Part shown: positions 6,861-30,448 of the stretch, piece by piece
Layout: each line of letters starts with the position of its first letter
Position numbering within the stretch: the stretch's first letter is position 1
Source of the DNA: Gammaproteobacteria bacterium
GTDB lineage: Bacteria; Pseudomonadota; Gammaproteobacteria; Eutrophobiales; Eutrophobiaceae
NCBI GenBank assembly: GCA_965204045.1
Contig: CBDBDW010000002.1
Coordinates: 2,946,610 to 3,010,609, forward strand
Direction of reading: 5' to 3'
Length of the DNA stretch: 64,000 nt
The notes under the pieces: model-generated
The model's input: the letters and a program-made list of their open reading frames with translations, nothing else
Database searches by the model: none
What the model was told of the DNA's origin: nothing
Program-made: the position numbers and the translations under genes

Positions 6861-7604
6861 TTAACGCCGTAAAAACGCGATCCAGCGGTAGAAATTCAGC
6901 AGGCTGGACAGGGATGCGGAAACATAGGTCAGCGCCGCCGCTGTCAGGATGCGGCGCGCCACGGGTTCTGCGCTGCGCGGCAGGTATTCCCCCTCAATCA
7001 ACAACGGCAGGGCGCGGTTGAAACTTGCGTCCCACTCTACAGGCAATGTCACCAGGTGAAATATAACCGGCAGCACCAGTATCAGGATGCCGGAACCAAG
7101 CATCAGCGCTCCTGTCAGGGGTGACTTGATCAATATGGTTACAAACGGGAAGCTCACCAGTATGATTGATGCCGTTTTTTCCGTATACGCGATATACTTG
7201 GCCAGTTTCCAGCGCAGGTAAAGAGGTTTGAAACCGAACTGGTGCTGCAGGGCATGGCCGACTTCATGTGCGGCAACCACCACCGAGGTCAGGGATTTGC
7301 GATCATATACGCCTGAAGACAGGCACACGGTCCTGTTTTCCGGATCGTAGTGATCGCCCCCGTGTTCCAGCGCCTCGACCTTGCAACCGGTCAGCTCCAG
7401 ATGTGCGACCAGGTGACGAGCGAGTTCTCCACCTGTTCCGGGCAATTCGTCCACTATGGCGTCATAGCGTTTGAAAACGTATTTCGTCCACAGGTGAGGA
7501 CCCAGGATTAACGCCAGCAATAAAATAAAACCTGCGATACCAATTAACATAATCAGAAACCGGGAATCCTTAATTCTTGACTGACAATGACTCCGGCACA
7601 ACAT
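6861..7604 (-). CDS. membrane-anchored zinc metallopeptidase (HExxH); true start may be the internal Met at about 7550
   Basis: N-terminal transmembrane helix, HEVGHALQH zinc-binding motif and C-terminal membrane helices. Confidence 0.6.
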   Translation of the reverse strand: MLCRSHCQSRIKDSRFLIMLIGIAGFILLLALILGPHLWTKYVFKRYDAIVDELPGTGGELARHLVAHLELTGCKVEALEHGGDHYDPENRTVCLSSGVYDRKSLTSVVVAAHEVGHALQHQFGFKPLYLRWKLAKYIAYTEKTASIILVSFPFVTILIKSPLTGALMLGSGILILVLPVIFHLVTLPVEWDASFNRALPLLIEGEYLPRSAEPVARRILTAAALTYVSASLSSLLNFYRWIAFLRR

Positions 7605-8681
7605 TACCAGTCTGATACAGACAAAGGCAGGATCATGCCTGATCCGGCCCAGGCCGTTGTCATCAACCAGGTCCAGTCATTATACGACGATCTGGTAAGC
7701 GCAGGATCGGACAACCGCATCAAGCGTTTATTCACGCGGCTGTCTTCAACCCGGAACAGGCAGATACCAGGTATGTATCTCTGGGGCAGCGTCGGTAGCG
7801 GCAAGACATATATCGTTGACATGTTATACGACTGCCTTCCTTTTGAGCACAAGCTGCGCGTGCATTTTCACCGCTACATGCAGTGGGTGCACGCAGAACT
7901 GAAACGGCTCTCCAATGTTGAAACACCTCTCAGGCTGGTTGCGGACAAGCTTGCCAGGAATACCACCGTAATCTGTTTCGATGAGTTTCACGTCTCCGAT
8001 ATTACCGATGCGATGCTGCTGAGCGGGCTGTTGAGCGAGCTGTTCAGACGCGGAGTAACCCTGGTCGCCACCTCCAACGAACATCCCGACAGGCTCTATC
8101 GGGGTGGTTTGCAACGGGAACGGTTTCTACCTGCAATTGAACTGATCAAACAGCATACCAGCGTGATCAATCTTGATACCGGTATCGATTATCGCTTGCG
8201 TTACCTGGACCAGGCCAGGACCTACCACCATCCCCTGGACGCCGACAGCCGGCAACGTCTGACTGAGAGTTTTGCACAAATCGCTTCGGAAACCGCCGAA
8301 GCGAATACTACCGTTGAATTGGAAGGCCGCGAACTGAAAGTAAAACGAATCGCTTCCGGCGTGGTCTGGTTTGATTTCATGGAGTTGTGTGACGGTCCCC
8401 GCGGCGTTGCCGATTACATTGAAATAGCCCGGCAGTTTCAAACGGTCTTCGTGGAGGGCATCCCGCAAATGGATGATATGGACAATGACAGGGCAAGGCG
8501 TTTTATTACCATGGTGGATGAATTTTATGACCGCAACGTCAAGCTGATTGTTTCGGCGATGGTCGCGGCACAGGGGCTTTACATCGGCAAGCGCCTGGCT
8601 CAGGAATACAGGCGCACCGCAAGCAGACTTACCGAAATGCAATCCCATGAATACCTGGGACGTGCGCATTTGCCGGACTGA
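7587..8681 (+). CDS. zapE: cell division protein ZapE (AFG1-family ATPase)
   Basis: Walker A GSVGSGKT. Overall AFG1/ZapE layout. An alternative start at 7635 is possible. Confidence 0.8.
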   Translation: MTPAQHYQSDTDKGRIMPDPAQAVVINQVQSLYDDLVSAGSDNRIKRLFTRLSSTRNRQIPGMYLWGSVGSGKTYIVDMLYDCLPFEHKLRVHFHRYMQWVHAELKRLSNVETPLRLVADKLARNTTVICFDEFHVSDITDAMLLSGLLSELFRRGVTLVATSNEHPDRLYRGGLQRERFLPAIELIKQHTSVINLDTGIDYRLRYLDQARTYHHPLDADSRQRLTESFAQIASETAEANTTVELEGRELKVKRIASGVVWFDFMELCDGPRGVADYIEIARQFQTVFVEGIPQMDDMDNDRARRFITMVDEFYDRNVKLIVSAMVAAQGLYIGKRLAQEYRRTASRLTEMQSHEYLGRAHLPD

Positions 8682-8694
8682 TAAAAGAACTGGT

Positions 8695-8719
8695 GGGGAC
8701 AGAATTTAATTCTGTCCCC
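8695..8719 (+). terminator. rho-independent terminator hairpin after zapE (ggggacagaa-tttaa-ttctgtcccc followed by ttt)
   Basis: Perfect 10-bp stem read directly, followed by a T-run. Confidence 0.55.
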
Positions 8720-8783
8720 TTTATGCTGTGCTATCATTCCACAATTTCAGGGGAACAATAACAAGATCGAGGAGGTGTCATCG

Positions 8784-10832
8784 GTGTCCTATTCAACTGA
8801 AAACATTCGCAATATTGCCATTACCGGCCACAGCGGTTCGGGCAAGACCACACTCGTGGAAGCCTTGCTGCAGGGCGCCGGCGCGATCAATCAGAAAGGA
8901 TCGGTGGCGCGGGGAACAACCGTATGCGATTTTGACCCGCAGGAGAAAACTCACCAGCATTCCCTGGACAGCGCGATTGCCAGCCTGGATTACCAGGGCA
9001 GCCATGTCAACCTCATCGATACGCCGGGATATCCTGACTTTATCGGCCGCGCGTTATCCGTTTTGCCGGCCGTGGAAACCTGCGCTGTTGTGGTAAATGC
9101 CCAGGCCGGGGTTGAAATGGTAACCGGCAGGATCATGGAGTCAGCCGGAGAAAGAGGACTGGACCGCCTGGTGATCGTGAACAAGATTGATGCCGATGGC
9201 GTAGATACTGAAACCGTGCTGCAACAACTCAGGGAAGCCTACGGAAGCGAATGTCTGCCCTTGAATTTACCGGCGGCAGGTGGAACCGAAGTCGTGGACT
9301 GTTTTTTTCAGTCTGAAGGCAAGGAAACGGACTTTCTGTCCGTCGCAGAGGCTCACGTCAATATCGTCGACCAGGTCGTCGAACTGGATGAGGAACTCAT
9401 GGAACAGTACCTGGAACAAGGGGAGGACATCAAGCCGGAACAGCTTCACGAACCTTTTGAACAGGCCCTGCGTGAGGGCCATTTCATTCCGGTATGCTTT
9501 GTTTCTGCGGAAACAGGTGCAGGGGTGCCGCAATTACTGGAAGTTCTGGCAAGGTTAATGCCGAATCCCGGCGAGGGCAATCCACCTCCCGTCTTCCGTG
9601 GTGAAGGTGACGCGGCTGAAGAGATCGAAATCAGGCCGGACCCCGGCGGACATGTGATCGCTCACGTATTCAAGGTCAATATCGACCCGTTTGTCGGCAA
9701 ACTCGGGGTGTTCAGGATACACCAGGGAACGGTAACCAGGGACAGCCAGTTGTATATCGGCGACGGCCGCAAACCGTTCAAGGTGGGGCACTTGTTGAAA
9801 CTGCAGGGCAGGGAGCATAACGAAATAGACCGGGGCGTGCCGGGAGACATCTGCGCTGTGGCGAAAATCGATGAGATCCATTTTAACGCGCTGCTGCACG
9901 ATTCCCACGATGAAGACCAGGTTCACCTGCAATCCATCGATATCCCGGCGCCCATGTACGGCCTGGCCATTCAGGCGAAGAGCAGGGGGGATGAACAGAA
10001 GATATCAGACGCCTTGCACAAACTCGGGGCTGAAGATCAAAGCTTCCTGGTGGAGCACAATGCGGCTACAAATGAAACGGTCATCCGCGGCCTGGGTGAG
10101 TTCCACCTGCGAATCATGCTGGAAAAACTGAAGGACCGCCACAATGTCGAAGTGACCACAAGACCTCCGAAAATTGCTTACAAGGAAACCATTACCGCCA
10201 ATGCCGAGGGACACCATCGGCACAAGAAACAGACCGGAGGGGCAGGGCAGTTCGGCGAAGTCTTCCTGAGAGTCGAACCCTTGCCAAGAGGCAGCGGCTT
10301 TGAGTTCGTCGATGCCGTGGTAGGCGGGGTCATACCAAAACCCCTGGTCCCTGCAGTTGAGAAAGGCATCAAACAAGCGCTGGAAAGCGGTTTCCTGTCC
10401 GGCAATCCCATGCAGGACATCAGGGTGACGGTGTATGACGGGAAACACCATCCTGTAGATTCCAAGGAGGTGGCATTCATCGCCGCGGGCAAAAAAGCAT
10501 TTCTTGATGCGTTTCACAAGGCCAGGCCGGTCGTTCTTGAACCGATCGTTGATATCGATGTGACCGCTCCCAGTGGCGCCATGGGTGATATCAACGCTGA
10601 CATTTCGGGCAAGCGGGGGCGGATCAGCAACACTCTCGCTCTTGCCGGCGGCATGTCGACAATTACCGCCAGCGTACCGTTGAGTGAACTGGATAATTAC
10701 CAGTCACAACTGAAATCCATGACCGGCGGGGCCGGCTCTTATTCCCTCAGTTTCAGCCATTATGATCCGGTGCCGGCAAAAACGCAAAAGGAACTGATTG
10801 CCGCACACAAACCGAAGGAAGAAGAGGATTAA
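8784..10832 (+). CDS. EF-G-family translational GTPase (EF-G paralogue)
   Basis: G1 motif AITGHSGSGKTTL, G3 DTPGYPDF, EF-G domain order, about 682 aa. GTG start at 8784 with RBS gaggagg nine nucleotides upstream. The ORF-track start at 8775 overlaps that RBS. Confidence 0.8.
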   Translation: MSYSTENIRNIAITGHSGSGKTTLVEALLQGAGAINQKGSVARGTTVCDFDPQEKTHQHSLDSAIASLDYQGSHVNLIDTPGYPDFIGRALSVLPAVETCAVVVNAQAGVEMVTGRIMESAGERGLDRLVIVNKIDADGVDTETVLQQLREAYGSECLPLNLPAAGGTEVVDCFFQSEGKETDFLSVAEAHVNIVDQVVELDEELMEQYLEQGEDIKPEQLHEPFEQALREGHFIPVCFVSAETGAGVPQLLEVLARLMPNPGEGNPPPVFRGEGDAAEEIEIRPDPGGHVIAHVFKVNIDPFVGKLGVFRIHQGTVTRDSQLYIGDGRKPFKVGHLLKLQGREHNEIDRGVPGDICAVAKIDEIHFNALLHDSHDEDQVHLQSIDIPAPMYGLAIQAKSRGDEQKISDALHKLGAEDQSFLVEHNAATNETVIRGLGEFHLRIMLEKLKDRHNVEVTTRPPKIAYKETITANAEGHHRHKKQTGGAGQFGEVFLRVEPLPRGSGFEFVDAVVGGVIPKPLVPAVEKGIKQALESGFLSGNPMQDIRVTVYDGKHHPVDSKEVAFIAAGKKAFLDAFHKARPVVLEPIVDIDVTAPSGAMGDINADISGKRGRISNTLALAGGMSTITASVPLSELDNYQSQLKSMTGGAGSYSLSFSHYDPVPAKTQKELIAAHKPKEEED

Positions 10833-10847: not shown

Positions 10848-10890
10848 GGGGTCAGAGTAAGAAATTCGCCAGAATTTTTACTCTGACCCC
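10848..10890 (+). terminator. rho-independent terminator after the EF-G paralogue (stem ggggtcagagtaa / ttactctgacccc)
   Basis: 13-bp inverted repeat with a 17-nt loop, then an A/T-rich tract. Confidence 0.55.
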
Positions 10891-11005
10891 AACTATCTTT
10901 TATATCTATTTGTCATATATATAGTCAAATTAAGCACTTTTATGCATAAGACTTAACTGCTATTCTTTGCGCCCTGTTGAATTTCGAGAGCAGTTTACAG
11001 TCGAT

Positions 11006-12700
11006 ATGTACCAATATGACGAATACGATCAGCAGATCGTAGACGAACGGGTAGCCCAGTTTCGCGACCAGACCCGGCGTTACCTGGCAGGAGAACTCAG
11101 CGAAGATGAGTATCGGCCGCTACGCCTGATGAACGGTCTGTACATCCAGAGGCATGCACCGATGCTGCGTGTGTCAATTCCGTACGGATTGTTGTCTTCA
11201 ACCCAGTTGCGCATGCTGGCGTATATTGCGGACAAGTACGATAAAGGCTACGGCCACTTCAGTACCAGGCAGAATATTCAGTTCAACTGGCCCAGACTGG
11301 AGACCGTGCCTGATATCCTGGCGGATCTTGCCAGTGTACAGATGCATGCTATCCAGACGAGCGGCAACTGCATACGCAACATCACCTCGGACCATTTTGC
11401 CGGCATCGCCGAGGATGAACTGGAAGACCCGCGCCCCTATTGTGAAATCATTCGCCAGTGGTCAACATTCCATCCGGAGTTTTCTTTCCTCCCGCGCAAG
11501 TTCAAGATTGCGGTATCCGGCTCGGAGAATGATCGCGCCGCGGTGCAGATACACGATATCGGCATTTACCTGGTCAGGAATGAAGCGGGTGAAACAGGCT
11601 GCAAAATACTGGTGGGCGGAGGCCTGGGGCGCACGCCTTACCTGGGGGTATGTATACGGGATTACCTTGAGAAGCAACACCTGCTGTCTTACCTGGAAGC
11701 CATCCTGCGAGTTTACAACCAGCTGGGCCGGCGCGACAACATGCATAAAGCCAGGATAAAGATCCTGGTCAATGCGATCGGTCCGGAAAAATTTACCGAT
11801 ATGGTTGAAACTGAATGGCGCCGAATCAGGGACACGGCCCTGTTGCTGGACCAGGCTGAGATCGACCGGGTCAAGGGTTTTTTCACCGAGCCGGAGTTTG
11901 ATAAAAACGCTGCCGATGACGCAACGTTCGCAAAACGCCTGGTATTGCAGAAAGACTTCAAACTGTGGGTGCGGCGTAATGTAAAGGCCCACAAGGCGCC
12001 GGGTTACCGCGCCGTTTACCTTTCGCTCAAACATCCGGGCGTTGCCCCCGGTGACGCTACGGGCGCACAGATGAATTTTATCGCGACCCTGGCTGATAAA
12101 TACAGCTACTCGGAAATACGCGTGACCCATGACCAGAACCTGATCCTGCCTCATGTCAGACAGGGAGACCTGTATTCGCTCTGGAATGCTTTAAGAAAGG
12201 AACAGCTCGCAACACCCAACATCGGCCTGCTGACGGACATGATATGCTGTCCCGGGCTGGACTTCTGCAACCTGGCTAACGCAGGATCCATCGATATAGC
12301 CGGACAAATCAATAAAAGGTTTAACGAACTGGATTACCTGCATGATATCGGTGATTTCCAGATCAAGATGTCCGGTTGCATGAATGCCTGCGGTCATCAT
12401 CATGTAGGACACATCGGGATTCTGGGTGTTGACAAGAAAGGCAAGGAATTTTATCAACTTACACTGGGCGGCTCGGCCGGGAATGCGGCGCGGCTCGGAG
12501 ACCGTCTGGGTCCTGCCGTCGCAAAGGAGGAAGTGGCAGAGACCATAGACAGGATATTGCAGGTATACCTGGAACAGCGGGAGGGAGAGGAGCAGTTCCT
12601 GGAAACCTACTTGCGGGTAGGGATGGATCCGTTCAAGGACAGGGTCTATGCTGCCGAAACCGGGCGCGTAGAGGAGTTCAAAGCCGTTGCGGGTTATTAA
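11006..12700 (+). CDS. cysI: sulfite reductase hemoprotein (siroheme/[4Fe-4S], CysI-like)
   Basis: Nitrite/sulfite reductase ferredoxin-like half domains. Cysteine cluster CMNACGHHHVGHIG. Start assigned to MYQYDEYDQ by analogy with pseudomonad CysI. The ORF-track start is 10967. Confidence 0.8.
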   Translation: MYQYDEYDQQIVDERVAQFRDQTRRYLAGELSEDEYRPLRLMNGLYIQRHAPMLRVSIPYGLLSSTQLRMLAYIADKYDKGYGHFSTRQNIQFNWPRLETVPDILADLASVQMHAIQTSGNCIRNITSDHFAGIAEDELEDPRPYCEIIRQWSTFHPEFSFLPRKFKIAVSGSENDRAAVQIHDIGIYLVRNEAGETGCKILVGGGLGRTPYLGVCIRDYLEKQHLLSYLEAILRVYNQLGRRDNMHKARIKILVNAIGPEKFTDMVETEWRRIRDTALLLDQAEIDRVKGFFTEPEFDKNAADDATFAKRLVLQKDFKLWVRRNVKAHKAPGYRAVYLSLKHPGVAPGDATGAQMNFIATLADKYSYSEIRVTHDQNLILPHVRQGDLYSLWNALRKEQLATPNIGLLTDMICCPGLDFCNLANAGSIDIAGQINKRFNELDYLHDIGDFQIKMSGCMNACGHHHVGHIGILGVDKKGKEFYQLTLGGSAGNAARLGDRLGPAVAKEEVAETIDRILQVYLEQREGEEQFLETYLRVGMDPFKDRVYAAETGRVEEFKAVAGY

Positions 12701-13193
12701 AAACGGCAAGGTGGAGGAAGATGGCTGGCAAAGGATTGCCGGGACGGATTCTCAACGACCATTACCTGAAGGCGATTTGATAGTGCCTCTTGACTATTGG
12801 CGCCGTAACAGGGAACTGCTGGCACGGCACAACGGCAGGATTGGCGTCTGCCTGGCGGGAGAGGACAGTCTCGATGATTGCTCCGGTTCGCTGGACCAAT
12901 TTGAACTGGTCGCCCTGGAGTTTCCCAAATTTACCGACGGGCGCAGTTATTCCCACGCCAGGCTGTTGCGCGATCGGTACGGCTATCGCGGTGAGATACG
13001 CGCGGTGGGGGAAGTGCTCAGGGATCAATTATTTTTTATGCAGCGTTGCGGCATCGATTCATATCAGGTCCGGGAGGGCAAGGATGCGGAAGATGCATTG
13101 AAAGGATTGTCGGACTTCAGCGTGAAATACCAGACAGCCGCAGACGGCGCGCCTCCCGTCTACAAGCTCAGGCAAAAGCAACGAAATCAGTGA
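12687..13193 (+). CDS. DUF934-family protein (conserved partner downstream of cysI)
   Basis: 168 aa, overlaps the cysI stop. The cysI-DUF934 arrangement is conserved in gammaproteobacteria. Confidence 0.65.
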   Translation: MRVIKNGKVEEDGWQRIAGTDSQRPLPEGDLIVPLDYWRRNRELLARHNGRIGVCLAGEDSLDDCSGSLDQFELVALEFPKFTDGRSYSHARLLRDRYGYRGEIRAVGEVLRDQLFFMQRCGIDSYQVREGKDAEDALKGLSDFSVKYQTAADGAPPVYKLRQKQRNQ

Positions 13194-13210
13194 GCCGGTG
13201 GTATCCCGGT

Positions 13211-13552
13211 TTAACCCTTCAGTGAACTGATTCCTGTATCCAGGTCATCATGAATGGTGAACAGGTTCACCAGACCGCTTATTTCGAATATCTTCATGAT
13301 GTTATCATTCAGGGAACACACCGAGAAAGAACCGGAGCTCTTGGCAAAACTCTTTGTGGCAAAAATCAGGACGCGCAAACCGGCGCTGGAGATGTAATTT
13401 ACATCGGAAAAATTAATGATCATCTTGTTGCAACCGTTTTTTATTTCCTCCATGACCTTGTCATGTACTTGTCCCGAGTTGGTTGCGTCAACCCTCCCCT
13501 TCAGGTTAAGAATAACAATACCGTCCTGATTTACTGTTTCAATCTCACTCAT
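13211..13552 (-). CDS. STAS-domain anti-sigma-factor antagonist (RsbV/SpoIIAA-like)
   Basis: 113 aa. Conserved phosphorylatable segment NYISSAGLRVL. Confidence 0.8.
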   Translation of the reverse strand: MSEIETVNQDGIVILNLKGRVDATNSGQVHDKVMEEIKNGCNKMIINFSDVNYISSAGLRVLIFATKSFAKSSGSFSVCSLNDNIMKIFEISGLVNLFTIHDDLDTGISSLKG

Positions 13553-20880: not shown

Positions 20881-21174
20881 TCAGCGTCCGGGTTTTTCCT
20901 GGATGATTGAGGGTTGCTTTTCTATCAACGCCAATAGAATCCGCGCCGGCCCTTCCGGGCGCTGGCGCCCCAGTTCCCAATTTTTCAGTGTATCGAGCGA
21001 GACATCAATGCTTTTGGCAAAAGCTGTTTGTGAGAGCCCTGTCTTGCCTCGTACAGTCACGACATCGGGGGCTGATACTTCAATTCCGTGCACCGCGAAA
21101 CCATTGCGACCGCCCTCGAGGTAAACGCGGGTATCCTTAAGGCCGGTCATGACTTTATCGAATGCTTCACTCAT
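20881..21174 (-). CDS. HTH (Xre-family) antitoxin, HigA-like
   Basis: 97 aa with a helix-turn-helix segment LSQTAFAKSIDVSLDTLKNWE. Overlaps the upstream toxin gene by 4 bp. Confidence 0.7.
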   Translation of the reverse strand: MSEAFDKVMTGLKDTRVYLEGGRNGFAVHGIEVSAPDVVTVRGKTGLSQTAFAKSIDVSLDTLKNWELGRQRPEGPARILLALIEKQPSIIQEKPGR

Positions 21175-21569
21175 TGGCGCCTCCTGTAATTTTCAATCAT
21201 ATCTTTTGCAGCAGCTACCAGTGCCTCTCGTTCCCCGGAGCTGAGATTTGTTTTCTCATTCTTGGCAAATACGGCAAGTAAAAACACGGGAATGGTTTTG
21301 TCGGAAAACAGAAACACTACACGCGCCCCGCTGCTTTTACCACGCCCTGAACGGGCAAACCGCATTTTTCGTATGCCTCCTCCAAGTGACACGCCAGACT
21401 TTGGATTCTTTGCTACTGTGTTGACGATTTCATCTCGTTCCGAGTCTGACAGTATTCCCTTTGCTGCCGTGAGATACGCAGGCGTCTCAACGACAGTCTG
21501 TAAACTACCGCTCATAGAAAAATCATAGGTATCCCGGGCCTCGAAGTCAATAGCGATTGTATAACACAA
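21171..21569 (-). CDS. RelE/HigB-like toxin (Gp49/phage-derived RelE-fold family)
   Basis: Motifs RKMRF...GARVVFLF...VFLLAVFAKNEKTNLS are characteristic of HigB/Gp49-like toxins. Toxin-first orientation with an Xre antitoxin downstream. Confidence 0.65.
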   Translation of the reverse strand: MCYTIAIDFEARDTYDFSMSGSLQTVVETPAYLTAAKGILSDSERDEIVNTVAKNPKSGVSLGGGIRKMRFARSGRGKSSGARVVFLFSDKTIPVFLLAVFAKNEKTNLSSGEREALVAAAKDMIENYRRRQ

Positions 21570-21678: not shown

Positions 21679-24360
21679 ATGAATGAGAAACCAAAGGAAA
21701 ACCGCTTCCTGGACGCGTTGGAAGCCCTGTTTACCGGCGCCGAAGTAGAGGGCGAATCCGGCTTCATCAACCTGATGAGGATGAAACGGGGATATTTTAA
21801 ATCCTTGCGTCCGAAACTCATGGAAAAAATCGACAGTCGTGCCGGGAAAGATACGGCTTTCCGGGAAGAACTGTTCGATAAACTGTACACCTTTTTCAGT
21901 CGTTATTTCTGTGAAAGCGGCTCGATCTATTTCCGTCACTTGCCTGCTTTCTCAAAAATCTATGAGCGCGTCTATTCCTCTGATGAAGACGTTGCGTTGT
22001 CATGGAAAACCCACATGCTATATTACGTGAAATCGGACATCCTGGTGCGTTCCATGCCGGTAAGGCTGGAGGACAAACAGAATCCCGCACACAGGAGACT
22101 GTTTTACTTCGACGCTTCCCAGGTTGAACACAAACGTAACAACGAGCGACGCGAGTTTGTTTTTGAGTTCGCAAAAGTGGAAAGAAGCCCGGAAGGCAAC
22201 GTTGTACATCTCTCGGTATCCTACTCCCAGAAAGGCAGAAAAACCAAGCTTGAGACCATTATCAGAAAGGCCAGAAACGCGCCCGGCGCCAAGGTAATGC
22301 TGAGTGAAGATGACTTACAAGACGCATTTCGGGTTTTCAAACGGCAGACGGAAGCCGATTTCTTTATCAACAAGGATGCGCGGGGCTTTCTCCGCGAACA
22401 ATTCGACTTGTGGCTTTACCAGTACATGTTTCAGGATGAGACAATTTTTGAACAAAAACGGCTTGACCAGTTGCAAGCTATCCAGCTAACCGCGTACGAC
22501 ATCATAGATTTCATTGCCCAGTTTGAGGATGAACTGCGGCGGACCTGGGAGAAACCGAAGTTTGTACGCAACGTCAATTACGTGGTGACACTGGATAAAC
22601 TGCCCCCCGGACTGCTGGATAAGATTGTCAGGCACAAGGGCGCGGCAGCGCAGGTTGAGGAATGGCAATCGCTGGAACTGGTGGATGAGCAATTTTCCAT
22701 CGCGGAATTAAACAAGGGGGACGGTGAACTGGACCTGGAGAGTAACGGTCCCGTTAACAGGGCTTGCCGCTTTCTGCCTTTGGATACAAAGCATTTCAAA
22801 GAACTGGAGATGGAAATTCTTGGCGCGCTGGGCGACTTGGACGAGGCACTGGACGGCGAACTGGTACACAGTGAGAACTGGCAGGCGTTGAATACCCTGC
22901 AAAAGCGGTATAGGGGAAGGGTGAAGTGTATTCACGTTGATCCGCCCTATAACACGAAAACCAGCGGTTTTCTTTATCGGAATCAATACAAGCATTCCAG
23001 TTGGCTTACGATGATGGAAAACCGTGTGAATATTGCGTTGGAATTACTTGCGGAAGACGGTTCATTTTTGTGCCATATTGATGAGAACGAATACGAAAGA
23101 CTCCAGCTTCTCATGGAGAATACGGGATTGCTCAATCCCGGAACGGTAATATGGGATAAGAAAAACCCGATGATGGGAGCTAGAGGGATTTCTACTCGGC
23201 ATGAATATATCTTGTGGCGGACAAGACACGAGGGGGCTTTCTATCTCAAAAACACGAATGTCCAAGCCATGCTCGCTAAATCCAAAGAACTTATAAAAAA
23301 ACACGGTGGTGTGAATGGCAATGTGCGTAAAGAATTTTCGCGATGGGTAGAGGGCAATGTAGATCTCACCGGAGGAGAACGTGCTTACCGATTTTTAGAT
23401 GACAAAGGACAAGTTTATCGGGGTGTCGCTATGGTGTGGCCGAATCCCAACCCTGCTCCTGATAAATTCTTTGTTCCTTTAATACACCCTCTCACGAGAA
23501 AGCCATGTCCAGTTCCCCAAAGGGGTTGGTCGCAGTCGCCAGAAAGAATGAAAAGTCTTTTAGAAAAAGGGGAGATTCTATTCGGCAAAGACGAAACTAC
23601 TCAGCCACAGCGTAAGATATATCTCACCGGAGAATCCAGGCGCCCTGTCTCAACGGTCATTGAAAATGGTAAAAGAGGAAAGAAAGAAATAGATAATTTA
23701 GGACTGGACTTTTCCTACTGTCATCCTACATCACTTTATGAAGAATTGATAAATGCGTCTTCAATAAATGGAGATGGAGTCGCTCTTGACTACTTCGCTG
23801 GCTCTGGTACCACTGGCCATGCAATCATCAACCTAAATAAGGATGACGGTGGCAATCGAAAATATGTGCTCGTCGAAATGGGAGATTATTTTCATACAGT
23901 CCTGCTCCCGCGTCTAAAGAAAATCGTTTATTCCAAAGACTGGAAAGACAGGAAGCCGGTTTCCCATGAAGGCAGCAGTCACTTTCTCAAATACTACACC
24001 TTGGAACAATACGAAGAAACCCTGAGAAATTCCCACTATCAGGACGGCGAACAACTGGAACTGGACAGCATGAAATCGCCGTTCGAGCAATACGCGTTTT
24101 TCGGAGATGACAAACTCACCCACTCAGTCAGGCCGTTAAAGAACGGCAAATTGAAAATCAACCTCCACGCGCTCTACCCGGACGTAGACATCGCGGAGTC
24201 ACTCTCCAACATCCTCGGCAAACCCATCCGTCATCGTACGGCTGACACCGTAACGTTCACCGATGGCGCCACCGAAAAAACCAACCTCGCAACCATGACC
24301 GAGCAAGAGAAACGGCATTTCATCTCATTGGTGAAACCCTACCTGTGGTGGGGAGAGTGA
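21679..24360 (+). CDS. type III R-M Mod-like N6-adenine DNA methyltransferase (beta class: DPPY, then TRD, then FxGxG) with a ~400-aa N-terminal extension of unknown function
   Basis: IHVDPPYNT (motif IV) about 290 aa upstream of DYFAGSGTTGHA (motif I), which is the beta-class order typical of Mod. 893 aa, about 250-300 aa longer than typical Mod. Confidence 0.75.
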   Translation: MNEKPKENRFLDALEALFTGAEVEGESGFINLMRMKRGYFKSLRPKLMEKIDSRAGKDTAFREELFDKLYTFFSRYFCESGSIYFRHLPAFSKIYERVYSSDEDVALSWKTHMLYYVKSDILVRSMPVRLEDKQNPAHRRLFYFDASQVEHKRNNERREFVFEFAKVERSPEGNVVHLSVSYSQKGRKTKLETIIRKARNAPGAKVMLSEDDLQDAFRVFKRQTEADFFINKDARGFLREQFDLWLYQYMFQDETIFEQKRLDQLQAIQLTAYDIIDFIAQFEDELRRTWEKPKFVRNVNYVVTLDKLPPGLLDKIVRHKGAAAQVEEWQSLELVDEQFSIAELNKGDGELDLESNGPVNRACRFLPLDTKHFKELEMEILGALGDLDEALDGELVHSENWQALNTLQKRYRGRVKCIHVDPPYNTKTSGFLYRNQYKHSSWLTMMENRVNIALELLAEDGSFLCHIDENEYERLQLLMENTGLLNPGTVIWDKKNPMMGARGISTRHEYILWRTRHEGAFYLKNTNVQAMLAKSKELIKKHGGVNGNVRKEFSRWVEGNVDLTGGERAYRFLDDKGQVYRGVAMVWPNPNPAPDKFFVPLIHPLTRKPCPVPQRGWSQSPERMKSLLEKGEILFGKDETTQPQRKIYLTGESRRPVSTVIENGKRGKKEIDNLGLDFSYCHPTSLYEELINASSINGDGVALDYFAGSGTTGHAIINLNKDDGGNRKYVLVEMGDYFHTVLLPRLKKIVYSKDWKDRKPVSHEGSSHFLKYYTLEQYEETLRNSHYQDGEQLELDSMKSPFEQYAFFGDDKLTHSVRPLKNGKLKINLHALYPDVDIAESLSNILGKPIRHRTADTVTFTDGATEKTNLATMTEQEKRHFISLVKPYLWWGE

Positions 24361-24364
24361 TACA

Positions 24365-25015
24365 GTGAAGCAAGAAAATTACACCGCGCCCGTTTTTCGA
24401 CAAAAGGCATTCCATTGTCCGATATGCAATGTTTATGCAAACCAGGATTGGTATCCTGCCTACTATGGTTTTAGGGAACTTGGGTTAAACCAGATAGAGA
24501 TTCTACAAATTGCTCTTTGTGCTCATTGCGGACATTTTTCTTTCTGGCTGAACGGTAATCTCGTATATCCCAAAAAAATTACCGCCCCACTTGCGCATAG
24601 GGACATGCCAGAAACCGTAGTCGGCTATTACAACGAAGCGCGGGAAATATCTACTTCTTCTCCAAGATCTGCAGCAGCATTGCTTCGCATCGCCGCCAAA
24701 AAGCTCTGTGAAGCACTTGGAGAAAATGAACCTAACCTGAACCGAGCTATAGGCAACTTGAGCAAAAAAGGTTTGCCGCAAAATGTAATAAAATCACTGG
24801 ACACAGTCAGGATTGTGGGCAATGAAGGTGGCGCTCACGAAGGGCAGATTGATCTGACTGGTGAAGACAATAAGGAAATTGTTGACAGGTTATTCTGGTT
24901 AATCAATTTCATTATTGAAAAAACCATTACAGAACCAAGCGAAATAGAAAACACCTTCAGTTCCTTGCCGGAAAATAAAAGACAGGCTGCTGAAAAAAGA
25001 GACGAAGGAAAATAA
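24365..25015 (+). CDS. zinc-ribbon + DUF4145-like (possible HEPN-like) domain protein, translationally coupled to mod
   Basis: N-terminal CPIC...CAHC zinc ribbon. C-terminal segment RIAAKKLCEAL...SLDTVRIVGNEGGAHEG resembles DUF4145 as recalled from memory. GTG start 4 bp after the mod stop. Confidence 0.5.
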   Translation: MKQENYTAPVFRQKAFHCPICNVYANQDWYPAYYGFRELGLNQIEILQIALCAHCGHFSFWLNGNLVYPKKITAPLAHRDMPETVVGYYNEAREISTSSPRSAAALLRIAAKKLCEALGENEPNLNRAIGNLSKKGLPQNVIKSLDTVRIVGNEGGAHEGQIDLTGEDNKEIVDRLFWLINFIIEKTITEPSEIENTFSSLPENKRQAAEKRDEGK

Positions 25016-25187
25016 CAGTTGCAAAAGAATAGATTCGCTTCCTACTGTCACTTAAACATCGTGAATGGTGGAGGAAATAAGAATAGAACGGCAAAAGAAT
25101 CCTCTTCAGGATTTTGCACTGTAGCTATAGATATTCAGTTTATTGGAAGAAAATACCAAGCATAATTAATAACTGGAACTAGACAGC

Positions 25188-25481
25188 ATGAAATCACCGT
25201 TTCAGCAATACGTTTTTTTCGGTGACGATAAACTCGCTCATGCGGCCCAACCATCGGAAAACGGCAAACTGGACATCAACCTGCAAGACCTGTACCCTGA
25301 TATAGACATCGCAGAGTCACTTTCCAATGTCCTGGGCAAACCCATCCGTTGCCTTACAACAAATAGTGTTACCTTTATCGATGGAACGACAGAAAAAACT
25401 AACCCAGCCACCATGACAGAAGAAGAAAAACGCCATTTTCTCTCACTTATTAAACCTTATTTGTGGTGGGGTGTTCTATGA
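25188..25481 (+). pseudogene. diverged duplicate of the mod 3' end (97 codons, homologous to mod residues ~797-893); recombination scar or orphan fragment
   Basis: Protein identity to the Mod C-terminus is about 75% (MKSPFQQYVFFGDDKL.. versus MKSPFEQYAFFGDDKL..). Nucleotide identity about 75%. Copy B is more AT-rich. Confidence 0.7.
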
Positions 25482-26881
25482 ATCTCAATCTGAATATTAA
25501 AAATATCGGCAAGTTGACCAATGCTGAAATTCATATTGCAAACTTCACAGTGTTTGCAGGACCAAACAATACAGGTAAGAGTTTCGTTTCTAAGCTGCTG
25601 TATTCGCTGTTTAATGCTATGAACGCCAATCATATACAGATACATGTGAACAACTTGATCAAGCCCGTTGTAAGCAGTTTTTTCAGGCTGGATAGATTGG
25701 CACACTATAACATCGAAAAATCACAGCCTTTGCTGGAGGAGGGTGACCTAGAAAAACTGGAAGCCCTTGTCGAAGATTGTATGCCTGGTGACTCTAAAGA
25801 ACTGGATGAGGTTATAAGTAATCTTATCCACCAGACGAATGAGATTGAGAAAAAAGTAAACGATATTCAGATCCCTGAAGGAGTAAAAGAGGAAGCGAAA
25901 GGAAGGCAAAATGGAACATCACCTATCATGAGAATGAAAGAAACACATGAGGAATTAAAAAAATCTTTGGATAAATTAAAACAAGATTTAAGCGGGGGGG
26001 ATTGGCTGGATTTTATAGTCGCTGGGATGAAGTACAAAATCCGGCAAAACCTGATTCATAATTTCCAAACACCTACATTATCGGGCCTCATAGCTGAAGA
26101 CGATGCACCCTCAGAAATCATGTTCAAAAACTTCGGAAAATTCGAACTATTAAATGATGAAATCGAATTTGCGATAGACGAAATTTTGGTGCAGGAATTA
26201 CAACATCATTCCAACGTAATCTATCTGGAATCGCCCGTCTACTGGAAATTAAAGAATGCCCTAGATGATATAAGACGTAACCCGCGGAGAATGTTCTTTA
26301 GAAGAGAAAGGGAGCTACTGAGTGGCGTTCCCGAGTACTTCTATGATCTGATCACTGCACTAAGTTTTCAGCGCACAGGTGGCATTGCATTTCCGAACGT
26401 ATATGAAAAGTTGACGGGCAAGGAGGTCATGGGCGGGAAGATTGCCATTTCGGAAAGTGGCAATTTATCATTTCAAGAGAATGAGCGAAATTTCACATTG
26501 CCGCTTACCGCGATGGGAATAGTGAACATGGGAATATTGGCGTTGTTAATTGAACGTAATGTACTGGATAAAGATACTGTTATTTTTATCGATGAACCGG
26601 AAGCGCACCTACACCCCGCTTGGCAGGTCGTCATGGCGGAAGCCCTCTTTGAACTGTCCCGCTATGGTGTGAACGTAGTCATTGCTACCCATAGTGTGGA
26701 CATTCTTAAATGGCTGGAAGTACATGTGAAGAAAAAGCCTGAAGACAAGCAACTAATTGCACTAAACCAGTTTCCCGTCAACAACAGCGAAGTTGATGAA
26801 GATTTTGAAACCAAAATGGCAAATATCAAGCAGGAATTAACCCAGCCCTTCTCTGACTTGTATGTGGAAGGACTGTTATGA
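25478..26881 (+). CDS. ABC/SMC-like AAA ATPase (AAA_15/AAA_21-type) with a coiled-coil insertion; defence-associated ATPase embedded in the R-M locus
   Basis: Walker A FAGPNNTGKS. Walker B/D-loop VIFIDEPEAHLHP. H-loop IATHS. About 110-aa coiled-coil insert. No Toprim or other nuclease domain. Low-GC gene. Confidence 0.7.
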   Translation: MNLNLNIKNIGKLTNAEIHIANFTVFAGPNNTGKSFVSKLLYSLFNAMNANHIQIHVNNLIKPVVSSFFRLDRLAHYNIEKSQPLLEEGDLEKLEALVEDCMPGDSKELDEVISNLIHQTNEIEKKVNDIQIPEGVKEEAKGRQNGTSPIMRMKETHEELKKSLDKLKQDLSGGDWLDFIVAGMKYKIRQNLIHNFQTPTLSGLIAEDDAPSEIMFKNFGKFELLNDEIEFAIDEILVQELQHHSNVIYLESPVYWKLKNALDDIRRNPRRMFFRRERELLSGVPEYFYDLITALSFQRTGGIAFPNVYEKLTGKEVMGGKIAISESGNLSFQENERNFTLPLTAMGIVNMGILALLIERNVLDKDTVIFIDEPEAHLHPAWQVVMAEALFELSRYGVNVVIATHSVDILKWLEVHVKKKPEDKQLIALNQFPVNNSEVDEDFETKMANIKQELTQPFSDLYVEGLL

Positions 26882-27444
26882 CGTCTCTGGATAGCTTCCG
26901 GGAGAAACAGAATGTTTCCTCCGGCAAAGATTTTGAAGCCTTCCGCATGGATAACACAAAAAAGGCCGAAGGGATTCCTGATATGAGAACACACGTCGGG
27001 TTGGGTAGTTGTGATTGCTGTGACTATTTTCTTGTCCATGAAAATAAAGTTGTGCTGGTTGAAGAAACCCGGTTAGCGGATACCATTAAAACCATAGGAA
27101 AAAAATACTCTTACCTTACTGAACCCCACAGGCAGAAATTTACCGAAAATTGTGTCAGGCAGGAAAACTATGTGAAGGTATATGGGGCTTTGCTCGTCCT
27201 GTGCCGTCTGGCTGCGAAGTGCCGGGAAGCATCGACCCTGATACAAGACAAAAAACACGTTTTTTATCTTGTTGTCAAAGGAATGGAAACAGAAGAGGCA
27301 AAAAGGATGTTCGATAACTTGAAAGACAATTTGCAGTTGCAGTTACAAAGCGTCCTGACTCCGGCGGTAATGGACAATGTGGAAGTGATACCGTCCCGTG
27401 AGCTCCTGGCCGACAAACTATCACAACATGCAACCCGCTCTTGA
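26878..27444 (+). CDS. 188-aa partner protein of the ATPase (possible RloB/AbiLii-like or PD-(D/E)xK-like effector); function unknown
   Basis: Start overlaps the ATPase stop (ATGA). Contains IPD...x19...VHENK, a possible PD-ExK arrangement, and a CDCCD cluster. No confident domain call. Confidence 0.4.
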   Translation: MTSLDSFREKQNVSSGKDFEAFRMDNTKKAEGIPDMRTHVGLGSCDCCDYFLVHENKVVLVEETRLADTIKTIGKKYSYLTEPHRQKFTENCVRQENYVKVYGALLVLCRLAAKCREASTLIQDKKHVFYLVVKGMETEEAKRMFDNLKDNLQLQLQSVLTPAVMDNVEVIPSRELLADKLSQHATRS

Positions 27445-30400
27445 ACCCATCACCCAAACCCTGAACTACGGCGACCTGCCCGAAACCTGGCGCGTGCCGG
27501 AGATTGAACGCTTTTCAGTACAGAAAACACTGTATGACTATCAGGAAGACGCGCTTCGGTGTGCAGCGCGGGCGCTGTACCTGTACTATGGAAAGGAAGG
27601 AAATGACTACCAGACCGGGGAATCGCAAGCTGCCGACAGCGCCCGTAAGCAGGATTTTGCCAACCGGTACTCCTCTTCCCAACTTAACGACTTTTCAGTA
27701 AAGCAGTACGAAACCAACTCAGACAGACAAAACCGGAGAGAGAGCCCCGTCTTTAAAATTCTTTCCGAGTATATAACGCCGCAAGGTGAAGAAATTCCAT
27801 ACCGGCAACTCATTAATCGCATGTGCTTCTGGATGGCAACCGGCAGCGGGAAAACCCTGGTCATGGTAAAACTGGTTGAGTACTTGCACAGGTTGATGGG
27901 ACACGGTGGAATTCCACCGCACAAAATCCTCATTCTTGCTCCGAGCGATCATCTTATCGGACAGATTCGCCGGGCTATAGAAGAATTCAACCAAGCCGGC
28001 CTGAATATCGATTTTGTCCATCTTCGGGAACATGGAAAAATATCGCAGAGCCGACTCGGAGACTCTGTAACAGTCTATTACCATCGTAGCGACAACCTCT
28101 CTGACATGCAGAAGGAGGCGCTGACAGATTATCGCACCCACGAAGACGCCGGGAAATGGTATGTCCTCCTGGACGAGGCCCACAAGGGAGGCAAGGAAGA
28201 TTCAAAACGACAGGCGTATTACGCCATCATGGCTCGCCATGGGTTTCTGTTTAATTTCTCGGCCACGTTCACTGACCCTGAGGATATTGTAACGACAGTC
28301 AAGAAATACAACCTGGAGGAATTCATCAGGAACGGGCATGGTAAAAATATTTACCTGAATGAGAAAGAATACGAGGTGTTCAAACACAGGGAGCAGGAAA
28401 TCAGCCACGACGAAAGACGGAAAATCGTCTTGAAGTCACTTATCGCGCTGGCTTACGTGTCGCTCAGGGTGAAGGAACTCCGCAAAAATACGGGTTTGAA
28501 AGAACTCTATCACCTGCCTCTGATGCTGACCCTGGTCAACTCGGTGAATACCGACGTGGAAAATGAGAGGAATGACCTGTGGGCGTTTTTCCAGACCTTG
28601 CGCGAGATTGCTACGGGAGAGGTGGATGACGCGCTTTTCCGGACAGCAAAAAAAGACCTTGCGAAGGAATGGGCAGATGCGACCTTTCTTTTTGGGGAGG
28701 TCGGCGGAGAAATTATCCGGCTTGACCAGGCCCGAATCACAGGCATAAAACTAACCGACCTGCGCGAAGCGGTGTTTTCAGGTCGCAGAAAAAGCTCGTT
28801 ACAGTTAATCCGCAGCAAGGACAACAAGGAACTCGCTTTTCAGGTCAGAAACGCAGATGCCCCGTTTGCGCTGATTCGCATAGGAGATACCTCCAAGTGG
28901 CGGAATAACCTCCTGACAGGTTACGAAGAAACCAAAACCTTGCAGGAAAAATCTTTTTTTGATGACCTGGAAAAAAGTTCAATCACAATTCTCATGGGGT
29001 CCCGCTCTTTCTTCGAAAGCTGGGACTCCAACCGCCCCAATGTCATCAACTTCATCAATATCGGTGGAACCGAGGCAAAGAAATTTGTCGTGCAGTCCGT
29101 CGGGCGCGGCGTGCGCATCGAGACATTGCCCAACCAACGCCGCCGTTACGCCTTCCTGCCGGACAGTAACGAAAAGAACCTGCTTCAGGATTACGCCTGT
29201 GAAGTGCAGCCCGCAGAGACGCTGTTCCTTTTTGCCACTAATCGCAACGCGGTGAAGTCTGTTCTGGAAGGGCTGCAAACGGAAAAAAGCGGTATTTTTG
29301 AAAACGTTGACGGCTTTGTCAGGTCGCCAAAGCCGGTGATCAACGGCCAGTTACTGCCGCTCCTGGTCCCGGAATACAAAGAGGAAAAGACAGGTACGGC
29401 GACAAAGGCAAAATTTGCAATGAGTTCGGATACGCTGAACAGGTTCAGGAACTACCTTGCAAAAACTTCGGATTCGGCGCTTGCCGTCCGCGACAACCTG
29501 GTAGCCCGGGAGATAGCTGAGTTACGCGCATGCGCAGAAGGCAAAGAAAATATCCGCTTGGATCCGGGAAAGAACTACAGCAGCCTTGCCTTCCTGCAAA
29601 ATCGCCTCATATCCCACCTGTCAAAAACGGGGAGGATAGCCGATGGCCTGCGCGAACTGGATGAGGATGAAGACATCGTTCACTTTCGCAAAATACAAGT
29701 GCGACTGTCTCAAGGAGACCTGATCGATTTACAGAAGAAACTCAAAGCTGTCGCACAAGGCGATATATCCGAAGATGAAAAGAAAAAACGGGCGCTTCAG
29801 TACGCAGAAAACAAAATCAGCGAGGAAGAATTCATGGAGTATATCAGCGGCAAATCTGAAGAAACATTCAACGACTTGAAAATCAAAAACATTTCCAGGC
29901 ATTACTATGCGCCGGTTATTGCCGCCCAGACCGGAGCAGCGGATTTCATTAAGCACATCATCAGGGAAGAAAGCGAAGTGCGGTTTCTTGACAACCTGGA
30001 ACAATGGTTAGAAGACAATGACCCAGGATGGGACGCCTGGATGTTCAGCAAAATAGATGAGACATTGGACAATATCTATATACCTTACTACGATGCTACA
30101 ACCAATGAATACACTCGCTTCCTGCCGGATTTCATCTTCTGGATGTACAAGGATGATGAATACCGCATCGTTTTTGTTGATCCGAAAGGGACGGCGCACA
30201 AATCCGCCTATCTTAAAATTGACGGATATCAAAAACTGTTCGAACCGGAAAATAAACTGAAAGAATTCAAATACCGGAAACATGATCCTGGAACAAGCGC
30301 GGTATCGGAAGAGGATAACCCGGTTTCCGGCGCACGGATAAACGTCAGACTTTTGATGTTTAATGCGGATAGCGCCGTGCCGGATGCTTACAAGCGTTTC

Positions 30401-30448
30401 TGGACGGCTGCTCCGGCAGATGTTTTTTCCTGTGCCGCAAGCGGATGA
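27428..30448 (+). CDS. type III R-M Res-like subunit: SF2 helicase (motifs I, II, III, VI) with a C-terminal PD-(D/E)xK endonuclease
   Basis: MATGSGKT (I), LLDEAHKG (II), FSAT (III), QSVGRGVRI (VI). C-terminal LPDFIFW...IVFVDPKG. Start taken at MQPALEP (27428), overlapping the upstream stop. Confidence 0.75.
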   Translation: MQPALEPITQTLNYGDLPETWRVPEIERFSVQKTLYDYQEDALRCAARALYLYYGKEGNDYQTGESQAADSARKQDFANRYSSSQLNDFSVKQYETNSDRQNRRESPVFKILSEYITPQGEEIPYRQLINRMCFWMATGSGKTLVMVKLVEYLHRLMGHGGIPPHKILILAPSDHLIGQIRRAIEEFNQAGLNIDFVHLREHGKISQSRLGDSVTVYYHRSDNLSDMQKEALTDYRTHEDAGKWYVLLDEAHKGGKEDSKRQAYYAIMARHGFLFNFSATFTDPEDIVTTVKKYNLEEFIRNGHGKNIYLNEKEYEVFKHREQEISHDERRKIVLKSLIALAYVSLRVKELRKNTGLKELYHLPLMLTLVNSVNTDVENERNDLWAFFQTLREIATGEVDDALFRTAKKDLAKEWADATFLFGEVGGEIIRLDQARITGIKLTDLREAVFSGRRKSSLQLIRSKDNKELAFQVRNADAPFALIRIGDTSKWRNNLLTGYEETKTLQEKSFFDDLEKSSITILMGSRSFFESWDSNRPNVINFINIGGTEAKKFVVQSVGRGVRIETLPNQRRRYAFLPDSNEKNLLQDYACEVQPAETLFLFATNRNAVKSVLEGLQTEKSGIFENVDGFVRSPKPVINGQLLPLLVPEYKEEKTGTATKAKFAMSSDTLNRFRNYLAKTSDSALAVRDNLVAREIAELRACAEGKENIRLDPGKNYSSLAFLQNRLISHLSKTGRIADGLRELDEDEDIVHFRKIQVRLSQGDLIDLQKKLKAVAQGDISEDEKKKRALQYAENKISEEEFMEYISGKSEETFNDLKIKNISRHYYAPVIAAQTGAADFIKHIIREESEVRFLDNLEQWLEDNDPGWDAWMFSKIDETLDNIYIPYYDATTNEYTRFLPDFIFWMYKDDEYRIVFVDPKGTAHKSAYLKIDGYQKLFEPENKLKEFKYRKHDPGTSAVSEEDNPVSGARINVRLLMFNADSAVPDAYKRFWTAAPADVFSCAASG

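Follow-up and report, generated by a model that had tools for sequence, protein, structure and literature searches.

What is the role of a short open reading frame (ORF) lodged between the methyltransferase and restriction genes of a type III-like restriction-modification (RM) operon, and does it serve that operon or act on its own? The question arises from a stretch of DNA of 64,000 nucleotides, designated here as the window, in which a first-pass annotation had pointed to the ORF directly following mod as a possible sensor or RNase effector. Our main conclusion is that this ORF very likely encodes a RAZR-family protein that acts autonomously, as a one-protein system of abortive infection, and that it is co-transcribed with mod and is one of two defence cassettes that reside between mod and res.

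The gene order in this part of the window is uvrA, a RelE/HTH pair, mod, the RAZR gene, a 152-nt spacer, a 97-codon ORF, an ATPase gene, a gene for a 188-aa protein, res, pfkB and rpsF (Table 1). Mod and a helicase-type Res subunit occur together in one operon, as recognized by both Pfam and PADLOC, which assigns the system to type III. Identity of the Mod/Res pair with Hma was rejected, as PADLOC gave no Hma matches; the Res of the window has no PDB relative by sequence, and its NCBIfam matches are weak. The GC content is 38-50% across the locus versus 55-60% in the flanks, and searches for tRNA genes and Rfam families over the 64-kb window gave no matches. Between uvrA and mod, on the minus strand (20881-21569), lie a RelE/HigB-like toxin (132 aa) and an HTH/MqsA-like antitoxin (97 aa), a pair that stands at the edge of the low-GC island.

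The second embedded cassette consists of the ATPase, which matches the PADLOC model HEC-02A (1e-31), and of the 188-aa partner, whose match to HEC-02B is weak (0.0035). The ORF of the ATPase was called from a GTG at 25463, but translation probably begins at the ATG at 25478, whose overlap with the stop codon of the preceding remnant reads ATGA; at the other end, the 188-aa gene overlaps the start of res by 47 nt. The same pair of genes is also found in four related loci (L002, L036, L043 and L044).

Table 1. Coordinates of the features discussed in the text; residue numbers refer to the RAZR protein of the window
Feature	Position	Strand	Evidence or remark
Mod methyltransferase, type III-like (893 aa)	21679..24360	+	Pfam N6_N4_Mtase 4.9e-30; PADLOC MTase_III 8.5e-202
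mod 3' tail (…KPYLWWGE*) with GGAG ribosome-binding site for RAZR	24330..24364	+	17-locus junction alignment; tblastn remnants
RAZR / PD-T7-4 family gene (216 aa)	24365..25015	+	PADLOC, PDB, Pfam, AF2/Foldseek matches
Zinc-finger sensor domain	~aa 15-68		
Cys4 zinc ribbon (C18, C21, C52, C55)	24416..24529	+	Encloses hypervariable inter-knuckle segment, aa 28-49
Conserved linker	~aa 63-82		
DUF4145/HEPN RNase domain	~aa 83-200		
HEPN active-site motif R149-x3-N153-x4-H158 (RIVGNEGGAH)	24809..24838	+	Invariant; aligned to RAZR-Ec
In-frame remnant of another mod allele (last ~100 codons)	25168..25481	+	Boundary of next cassette
ABC-type ATPase (AAA_15/AAA_21) and 188-aa partner, second embedded cassette	25478..27444	+	Pfam, PADLOC
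Res helicase-type restriction subunit (1016 aa)	27398..30448	+	Pfam ResIII 2e-15, DEAD; PADLOC REase_III 1.5e-25

Identity of the gene behind mod

The gene starts where the first-pass annotation had placed it: the TGA of mod (24358-24360) is followed by TACA and then by the GTG at 24365. This start is supported by the close-clade relatives in which the start of RAZR can be placed, since they have an ATG at the homologous position and similar N-terminal residues (MKQENY in the window, MKQKNY in L034). The PADLOC model PD-T7-4 matches the protein over its full length (E=1.6e-72; aa 5-214 on positions 3-208 of the 211 of the profile). In the PDB, a sequence search found one strong relative, chain OA of 9y9c (E=9.4e-46), labelled 'DUF4145 domain-containing protein', of which residues 4-208 align end to end with aa 6-214 at 41% identity. 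A resemblance to DUF4145 had been proposed from the letters of the sequence, and the profile search upheld it: Pfam DUF4145 (PF13643) matches aa 90-174 with E=2.4e-11 and 43.9 bits, against a cut-off of 23.1. No NCBIfam model matches the protein.

Structure prediction led to the same relative. The AF2 model, computed from an alignment without the PDB-derived row of E. coli RAZR (RAZR-Ec), has a pLDDT of 87 and a beta-rich N-terminal domain with strands over aa 15-68; its confidence is low precisely at the active-site loop (aa 155-160). With this model as query, 9y9c was the sole Foldseek match at E<=0.001 (E=1.4e-9, prob 1.0). A chance ORF was rejected, as the PD-T7-4 match together with 138 homologues (E<=1e-3) among the 5.8 billion sequences searched, is far beyond chance. 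Judged from its sequence, the ORF is an intact member of the RAZR (PD-T7-4) family, a family of single-protein antiphage RNases with a zinc-finger sensor. This architecture already has a name, a structure (9y9c) and a mechanism, so that the protein is no novel type; it is one for which a confident functional annotation can be given while databases still call it a 'DUF4145 domain-containing protein'.

PD-T7-4 was discovered in E. coli through functional selection (PMC9519451). A Nature article of 2026 gave it the name RAZR, which stands for ring-activated zinc-finger RNase; entry 9y9c is the corresponding cryo-EM model, with the phage protein Gp77 bound (PMC13017515). The N-terminal Cys4 zinc finger binds ring-shaped phage proteins, the triggers being Gp77 of SECphi27 and the portal proteins of T3, T7 and SECphi18, and 24 RAZR protomers assemble around the trigger ring (PMC13017515). 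The DUF4145 domain is a divergent HEPN RNase, and defence is lost when R146 or H154 is replaced by alanine; once activated, the protein cuts single-stranded RNA and stops translation, which results in abortive infection (PMC13017515). Ring activation, cleavage of single-stranded RNA and abortive infection have so far been described solely in the proteins of E. coli and K. variicola (PMC13017515).

By analogy with these proteins, we infer zinc binding, the class of trigger, oligomerization, RNA cleavage and abortive infection for the RAZR of the window. Its Cys4 zinc finger would recognize a ring-forming phage structural protein, for example a portal, around which the protein would assemble into a curved higher-order oligomer. 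This oligomer would position paired DUF4145/HEPN domains (R149/H158) for the cleavage of single-stranded RNA, and the ensuing shutdown of translation would abort the infection. To the choice between sensor and RNase effector, homology with RAZR suggests the answer 'both', the zinc finger being the putative sensor and the DUF4145/HEPN domain the putative RNase.

A fast-evolving sensor and a constrained RNase domain

Conservation was assessed on an alignment of the window RAZR with RAZR-Ec (41% identical) and 38 database homologues (47-81% identical). Among the residues invariant in the 40 aligned sequences are C18, C21, C52 and C55 (spaced CxxC-x30-CxxC), R149, N153 and H158. The four cysteines align with C16, C19, C49 and C52 of RAZR-Ec, and the N-terminal zinc ribbon noticed at first sight is borne out by their invariance and by the beta-rich N-terminal domain of the AF2 model. 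R149, N153 and H158 align with R146, N150 and H154 of RAZR-Ec, so that VRIVGNEGGAH (aa 148-158), a segment previously offered as a possible degenerate HEPN motif, is indeed the active-site motif. In the linker, P69 and P82 are invariant and the mean identity over aa 63-82 is 0.60. A C-protein-like regulator was also considered for this gene and rejected on account of the invariant catalytic residues and of the existence of free-standing homologues.

Variation is concentrated between the two zinc knuckles, where the mean identity is 0.18 (aa 28-49) versus 0.74 for the HEPN domain, and where homologues have between 23 and 69 aa. Within RAZR, phage specificity is set by the zinc finger, which varies more than any other part, and the trigger contacts of RAZR-Ec (R29, Y31, R35, T41 and E43) lie in the inter-knuckle segment (PMC13017515). 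By analogy, this segment is presumed to be the trigger-recognition surface of the window RAZR. Because the trigger-contact loop is not conserved, the trigger of E. coli RAZR is not transferable to the window clade.

A codon comparison with the 81%-identical orthologue in L034 separates the two domains. The zinc-finger domain has 31 nonsynonymous and 10 synonymous-only codon changes, and the HEPN domain 10 nonsynonymous and 30 synonymous-only changes with a strong third-position bias. The sensor domain thus evolves fast while the RNase domain is under strong constraint, which is the pattern expected of RAZR. It is conceivable that the gene is an inactive passenger which, like the mod fragment next to it, is decaying after having been brought along by recombination, and gene remnants do populate this neighborhood. 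However, the ORF is intact and full length, it keeps all catalytic and zinc-binding residues, and the excess of synonymous changes in its HEPN domain reveals purifying selection; we consider a passenger scarcely credible.

The same sensor pattern is relevant to another explanation, in which the RNase would be mainly a toxin that stabilizes the RM island through post-segregational killing or selfish maintenance. HEPN RNases are commonly toxins (PMC3710099), and the low-GC locus is flanked by the RelE/HTH toxin-antitoxin pair. Nevertheless, no antitoxin-like partner is conserved beside RAZR across loci, RAZR-Ec is activated by phage infection or by co-expression of its trigger (PMC13017515), and a diversifying sensor domain fits trigger recognition. 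An addiction module is for these reasons very improbable, and an antiphage RNase with a phage trigger remains our preferred reading.

Placement within type III operons and cassette junctions

The boundary between mod and RAZR is tight. A GGAG motif resembling a Shine-Dalgarno (SD) sequence lies inside the last codons of mod (TGG TGG GGA GAG TGA), 9 nt before the RAZR start. A scan found no promoter-like site near the 3' end of mod on the plus strand and no terminator-like site after the RAZR ORF, the scan itself being weak and uninformative (9 promoter-like sites versus 12.3 expected from shuffles). The tight spacing, the SD sequence in the end of mod and the lack of a promoter- or terminator-like site there make translational coupling of RAZR to mod plausible. 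From the anatomy of this junction, we infer that RAZR is very probably co-transcribed with mod and translated from the ribosome-binding site in the last codons of mod.

Is this placement peculiar to the window? The order mod-RAZR-res with the same Mod/Res family is found in nine loci (the window, L001, L002, L005, L034, L036, L041, L042 and L044), and RAZR also lies between the mod and res of unrelated type III families in L006, L017 and L021, where it is 40-51% identical to the window RAZR and where the gene ends overlap or nearly abut. The position between mod and res recurs in these 12 loci, the window included. In contigs taken from one genome per species, RAZR is inside or adjacent to a type III operon in 7/33 loci, counting L004, in which it follows res; among the close homologues with contigs examined, the proportion is 5/7. 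By chance, about one gene in a thousand would be expected in such a position.

What accompanies RAZR varies from locus to locus. L005 and L042 are plain mod-RAZR-res operons, while the exact order of the window (mod, RAZR, ATPase, 188-aa protein, res) recurs in L044 and at the start of L002. L034 and L036 are metagenomic contigs syntenic with the window (ssb-uvrA ... pfkB-rpsF), with the same Mod/Res family and a different interval content: mod, a 635-aa AAA_21 ATPase, RAZR, Peptidase_M78, DUF4411 and res in L034, and mod, RAZR, SLFN_AlbA_2, CbiA, the ATPase, the 188-aa protein and res in L036. Side by side, the interval genes of L034, L036 and L041 comprise the 635-aa AAA_21 protein, a Peptidase_M78 with DUF4411, and SLFN_AlbA_2/HATPase_c_4 with a CbiA-like ATPase. 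The mod gene of L036 and that of L041 are each split in two ORFs. In L001 (4972-18704), RAZR stands between two full-length copies of mod (7306-9993 and 10866-13520), which are 97% identical over their first 300 nt and divergent in the middle; a mod-tail remnant, an ATPase gene and a res-head fragment are found further upstream.

The family as a whole extends well beyond RM operons. It comprises 521 clusters (50% identity) matching at E<=1e-30, and 2049 at E<=1e-10, with more distant members on Campylobacter plasmids, on haloarchaeal plasmids and in Streptococcus prophages; the plasmid copies stand alone. A 63%-identical homologue is found alone among housekeeping genes in 14 contigs, and homologues of the same clade (63-67% identity) occur without RM genes nearby in L037-L040 and L043. 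These contigs, the plasmid copies and RAZR-Ec, which works alone from its own promoter (PMC13017515), indicate that the family does not need an RM system. The type of copy present in the window is itself always within, or derived from, an RM operon.

This last association invites comparison with PrrC, a HEPN-type RNase whose gene sits within a type I RM locus. As a PrrC-like guard, the RNase would be masked or monitored by the type III Mod/Res proteins and would be unleashed once the RM system is disabled by an anti-restriction factor of a phage, instead of recognizing a phage ring protein directly. Such a role would suit the location of RAZR between mod and res, with tight or overlapping boundaries, in 12 loci and three or more type III families, as well as the mod tail upstream of RAZR, which outlasts the loss of mod. 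It fits less well with the autonomy of E. coli RAZR under its own promoter, with the same-clade homologues that lack nearby RM genes, and with the zinc finger being the variable part, as in the trigger-sensing RAZR; moreover, the SD sequence in the mod tail gives a simpler reason for the retention of the tail. We therefore judge a PrrC-like guard unlikely, and favor an autonomous RAZR that is housed in the operon. In view of the strict conservation of the mod junction, there may nonetheless be a functional link to RM that free-standing RAZR lacks.

The mod tail is the most constant element of these junctions. Where the start of RAZR can be placed, the last 30-70 nt of mod (…KPYLWWGE*, …CTGTGGTGGGGAGAGTGA) lie directly upstream of it. 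This is so even when RAZR is not beside mod (L034 and the second RAZR of L002) and in loci that have no mod gene (L043, and L037 with a degenerate copy); in L003, a trace of the mod tail is found just inside the start of the match. The tail is probably retained upstream of RAZR because it holds the GGAG ribosome-binding site. Fragments of res, corresponding to its first ~50-60 codons, are also found after cassettes.

In the window, such a remnant separates the two cassettes. The segment 25168-25467 is a 300-nt direct repeat, with 74% nucleotide identity to 24050-24354 in the end of mod and 76% amino acid identity over 100 aa; it contains the 97-codon ORF called at 25188-25481. The two copies differ at 18, 10 and 49 sites in codon positions 1, 2 and 3, respectively, and 35 codons differ synonymously only. 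Since the differences are biased toward third positions, the remnant diverged as the functional end of a gene in another allele, and not by decay in place. The 152-nt spacer that precedes it (25016-25167) has no similarity to the 5' head of res or to any related locus.

More elaborate arrangements were found in L002 and L043. A 229-nt unit made of a res head and a mod tail occurs twice between the cassettes of L002 (12611-12839 and 15363-15591, 92% identity). Within the same mod-res interval of this locus, the segment 12596-15591 holds a second RAZR paralogue that shares 45% identity with the window RAZR. In L043 (4746-9822), an array of cassettes (the ATPase and its partner, RAZR, a 223-aa protein and ThsB_TIR) is bracketed by mod-tail/res-head remnants, and no intact mod or res was called in this locus; the array looks like the 'ghost' of a lost RM operon. 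Mod itself is a mosaic of conserved and variable parts: aa 301-780 (22579-24018) are 42-75% identical across related loci, versus 69-93% for the N-terminal 300 aa. The variability of this middle part, presumed to be the target-recognition region, suggests specificity swapping by recombination.

The bracketing remnants suggest a recombination-driven accumulation of cassettes between mod and res. In the simplest reading, the ends of mod and res would serve as homology arms for swapping or stacking cassettes, for instance by joining of tandem or incoming operons followed by a deletion. A cassette would carry the mod 3' tail, supplying the ribosome-binding site, at one end and the res 5' head at the other, so that homologous recombination would suffice to exchange or stack cassettes, with no need of an integrase; RAZR, HEC-02-like ATPase pairs, M78-peptidase/DUF4411 and SLFN-AlbA/CbiA would be such cassettes. 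Loss of the RM genes would leave 'ghost' junctions. We propose tentatively, giving it somewhat less than an even chance, that the mod-res interval is a recombination platform that collects defence cassettes, and that RAZR, where embedded in RM operons, may be functionally linked to the RM system and serve it as a back-up route to suicide.

Comparison with known systems

The nesting of defence systems within others, including PrrC in type I RM as well as HEC-02, is described in Payne et al. 2024 (10.1101/2024.01.29.577857), where PrrC is reported to be almost exclusively RM-embedded. Embedding is on record for type I RM, BREX, DISARM and Hma. Our locus resembles the embedded systems of Payne et al. 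2024 in having defence genes on the same strand, nested in a system based on DNA modification. The text searched there does not treat type III RM, does not mention PD-T7-4, and makes no mention of mod-tail/res-head remnants bracketing cassettes; in a literature search of incomplete coverage, we came across no account of type III RM as a host of embedded genes, or of such junction remnants. Unlike PrrC, the window RAZR has no ABC-ATPase domain recognized by Pfam or PADLOC. Our analysis extends 'guilt-by-embedding' to type III RM systems, and the portable mod-tail/res-head junctions offer sequence-level evidence for the exchange and accumulation of embedded cassettes. The remaining genes of the mod-res intervals can be mined as defence candidates.

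DUF4145 was placed in the HEPN superfamily in 2013 (Anantharaman et al., PMC3710099), in a study that noted its fusion to zinc-ribbon, REase and helicase modules and its presence in operons with R-M systems (PMC3710099). The window protein belongs with this branch by its domain, which scores above the Pfam cut-off. It differs by the spacing of its active site, Rx8H instead of the canonical Rx4-6H, and, unlike the DUF4145 domains fused to Res or HsdR, it is small and free-standing.

The closest likeness is to RAZR of E. coli UMB1727, which has the same length and the same succession of Cys4 zinc ribbon, linker and DUF4145/HEPN domain. The zinc ligands and the catalytic R, N and H are identical, V21 of RAZR-Ec, a dimer-dimer contact of the zinc-finger domain, is kept as V23, and the zinc finger is the most variable part in both. 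Differences lie in the active site, where the window clade has one more residue between R and H (x8 versus x7, both outside the canonical HEPN range) and the window RAZR a two-residue insertion after the motif; in the trigger-contact loop, which is unrelated; and in the dimer-dimer interface of the HEPN domain, where D179, D180 and R184 of RAZR-Ec are replaced by E185, K186 and E190, nearly invariant in the clade. The replacement of D180 and R184 by K186 and E190 is a charge swap that could be compatible with a kept salt bridge. The window thus reveals a divergent and environmentally widespread RAZR clade, with an R-x8-H motif and a charge-swapped oligomer interface, which should be useful to test the generality of the ring-templated activation model.
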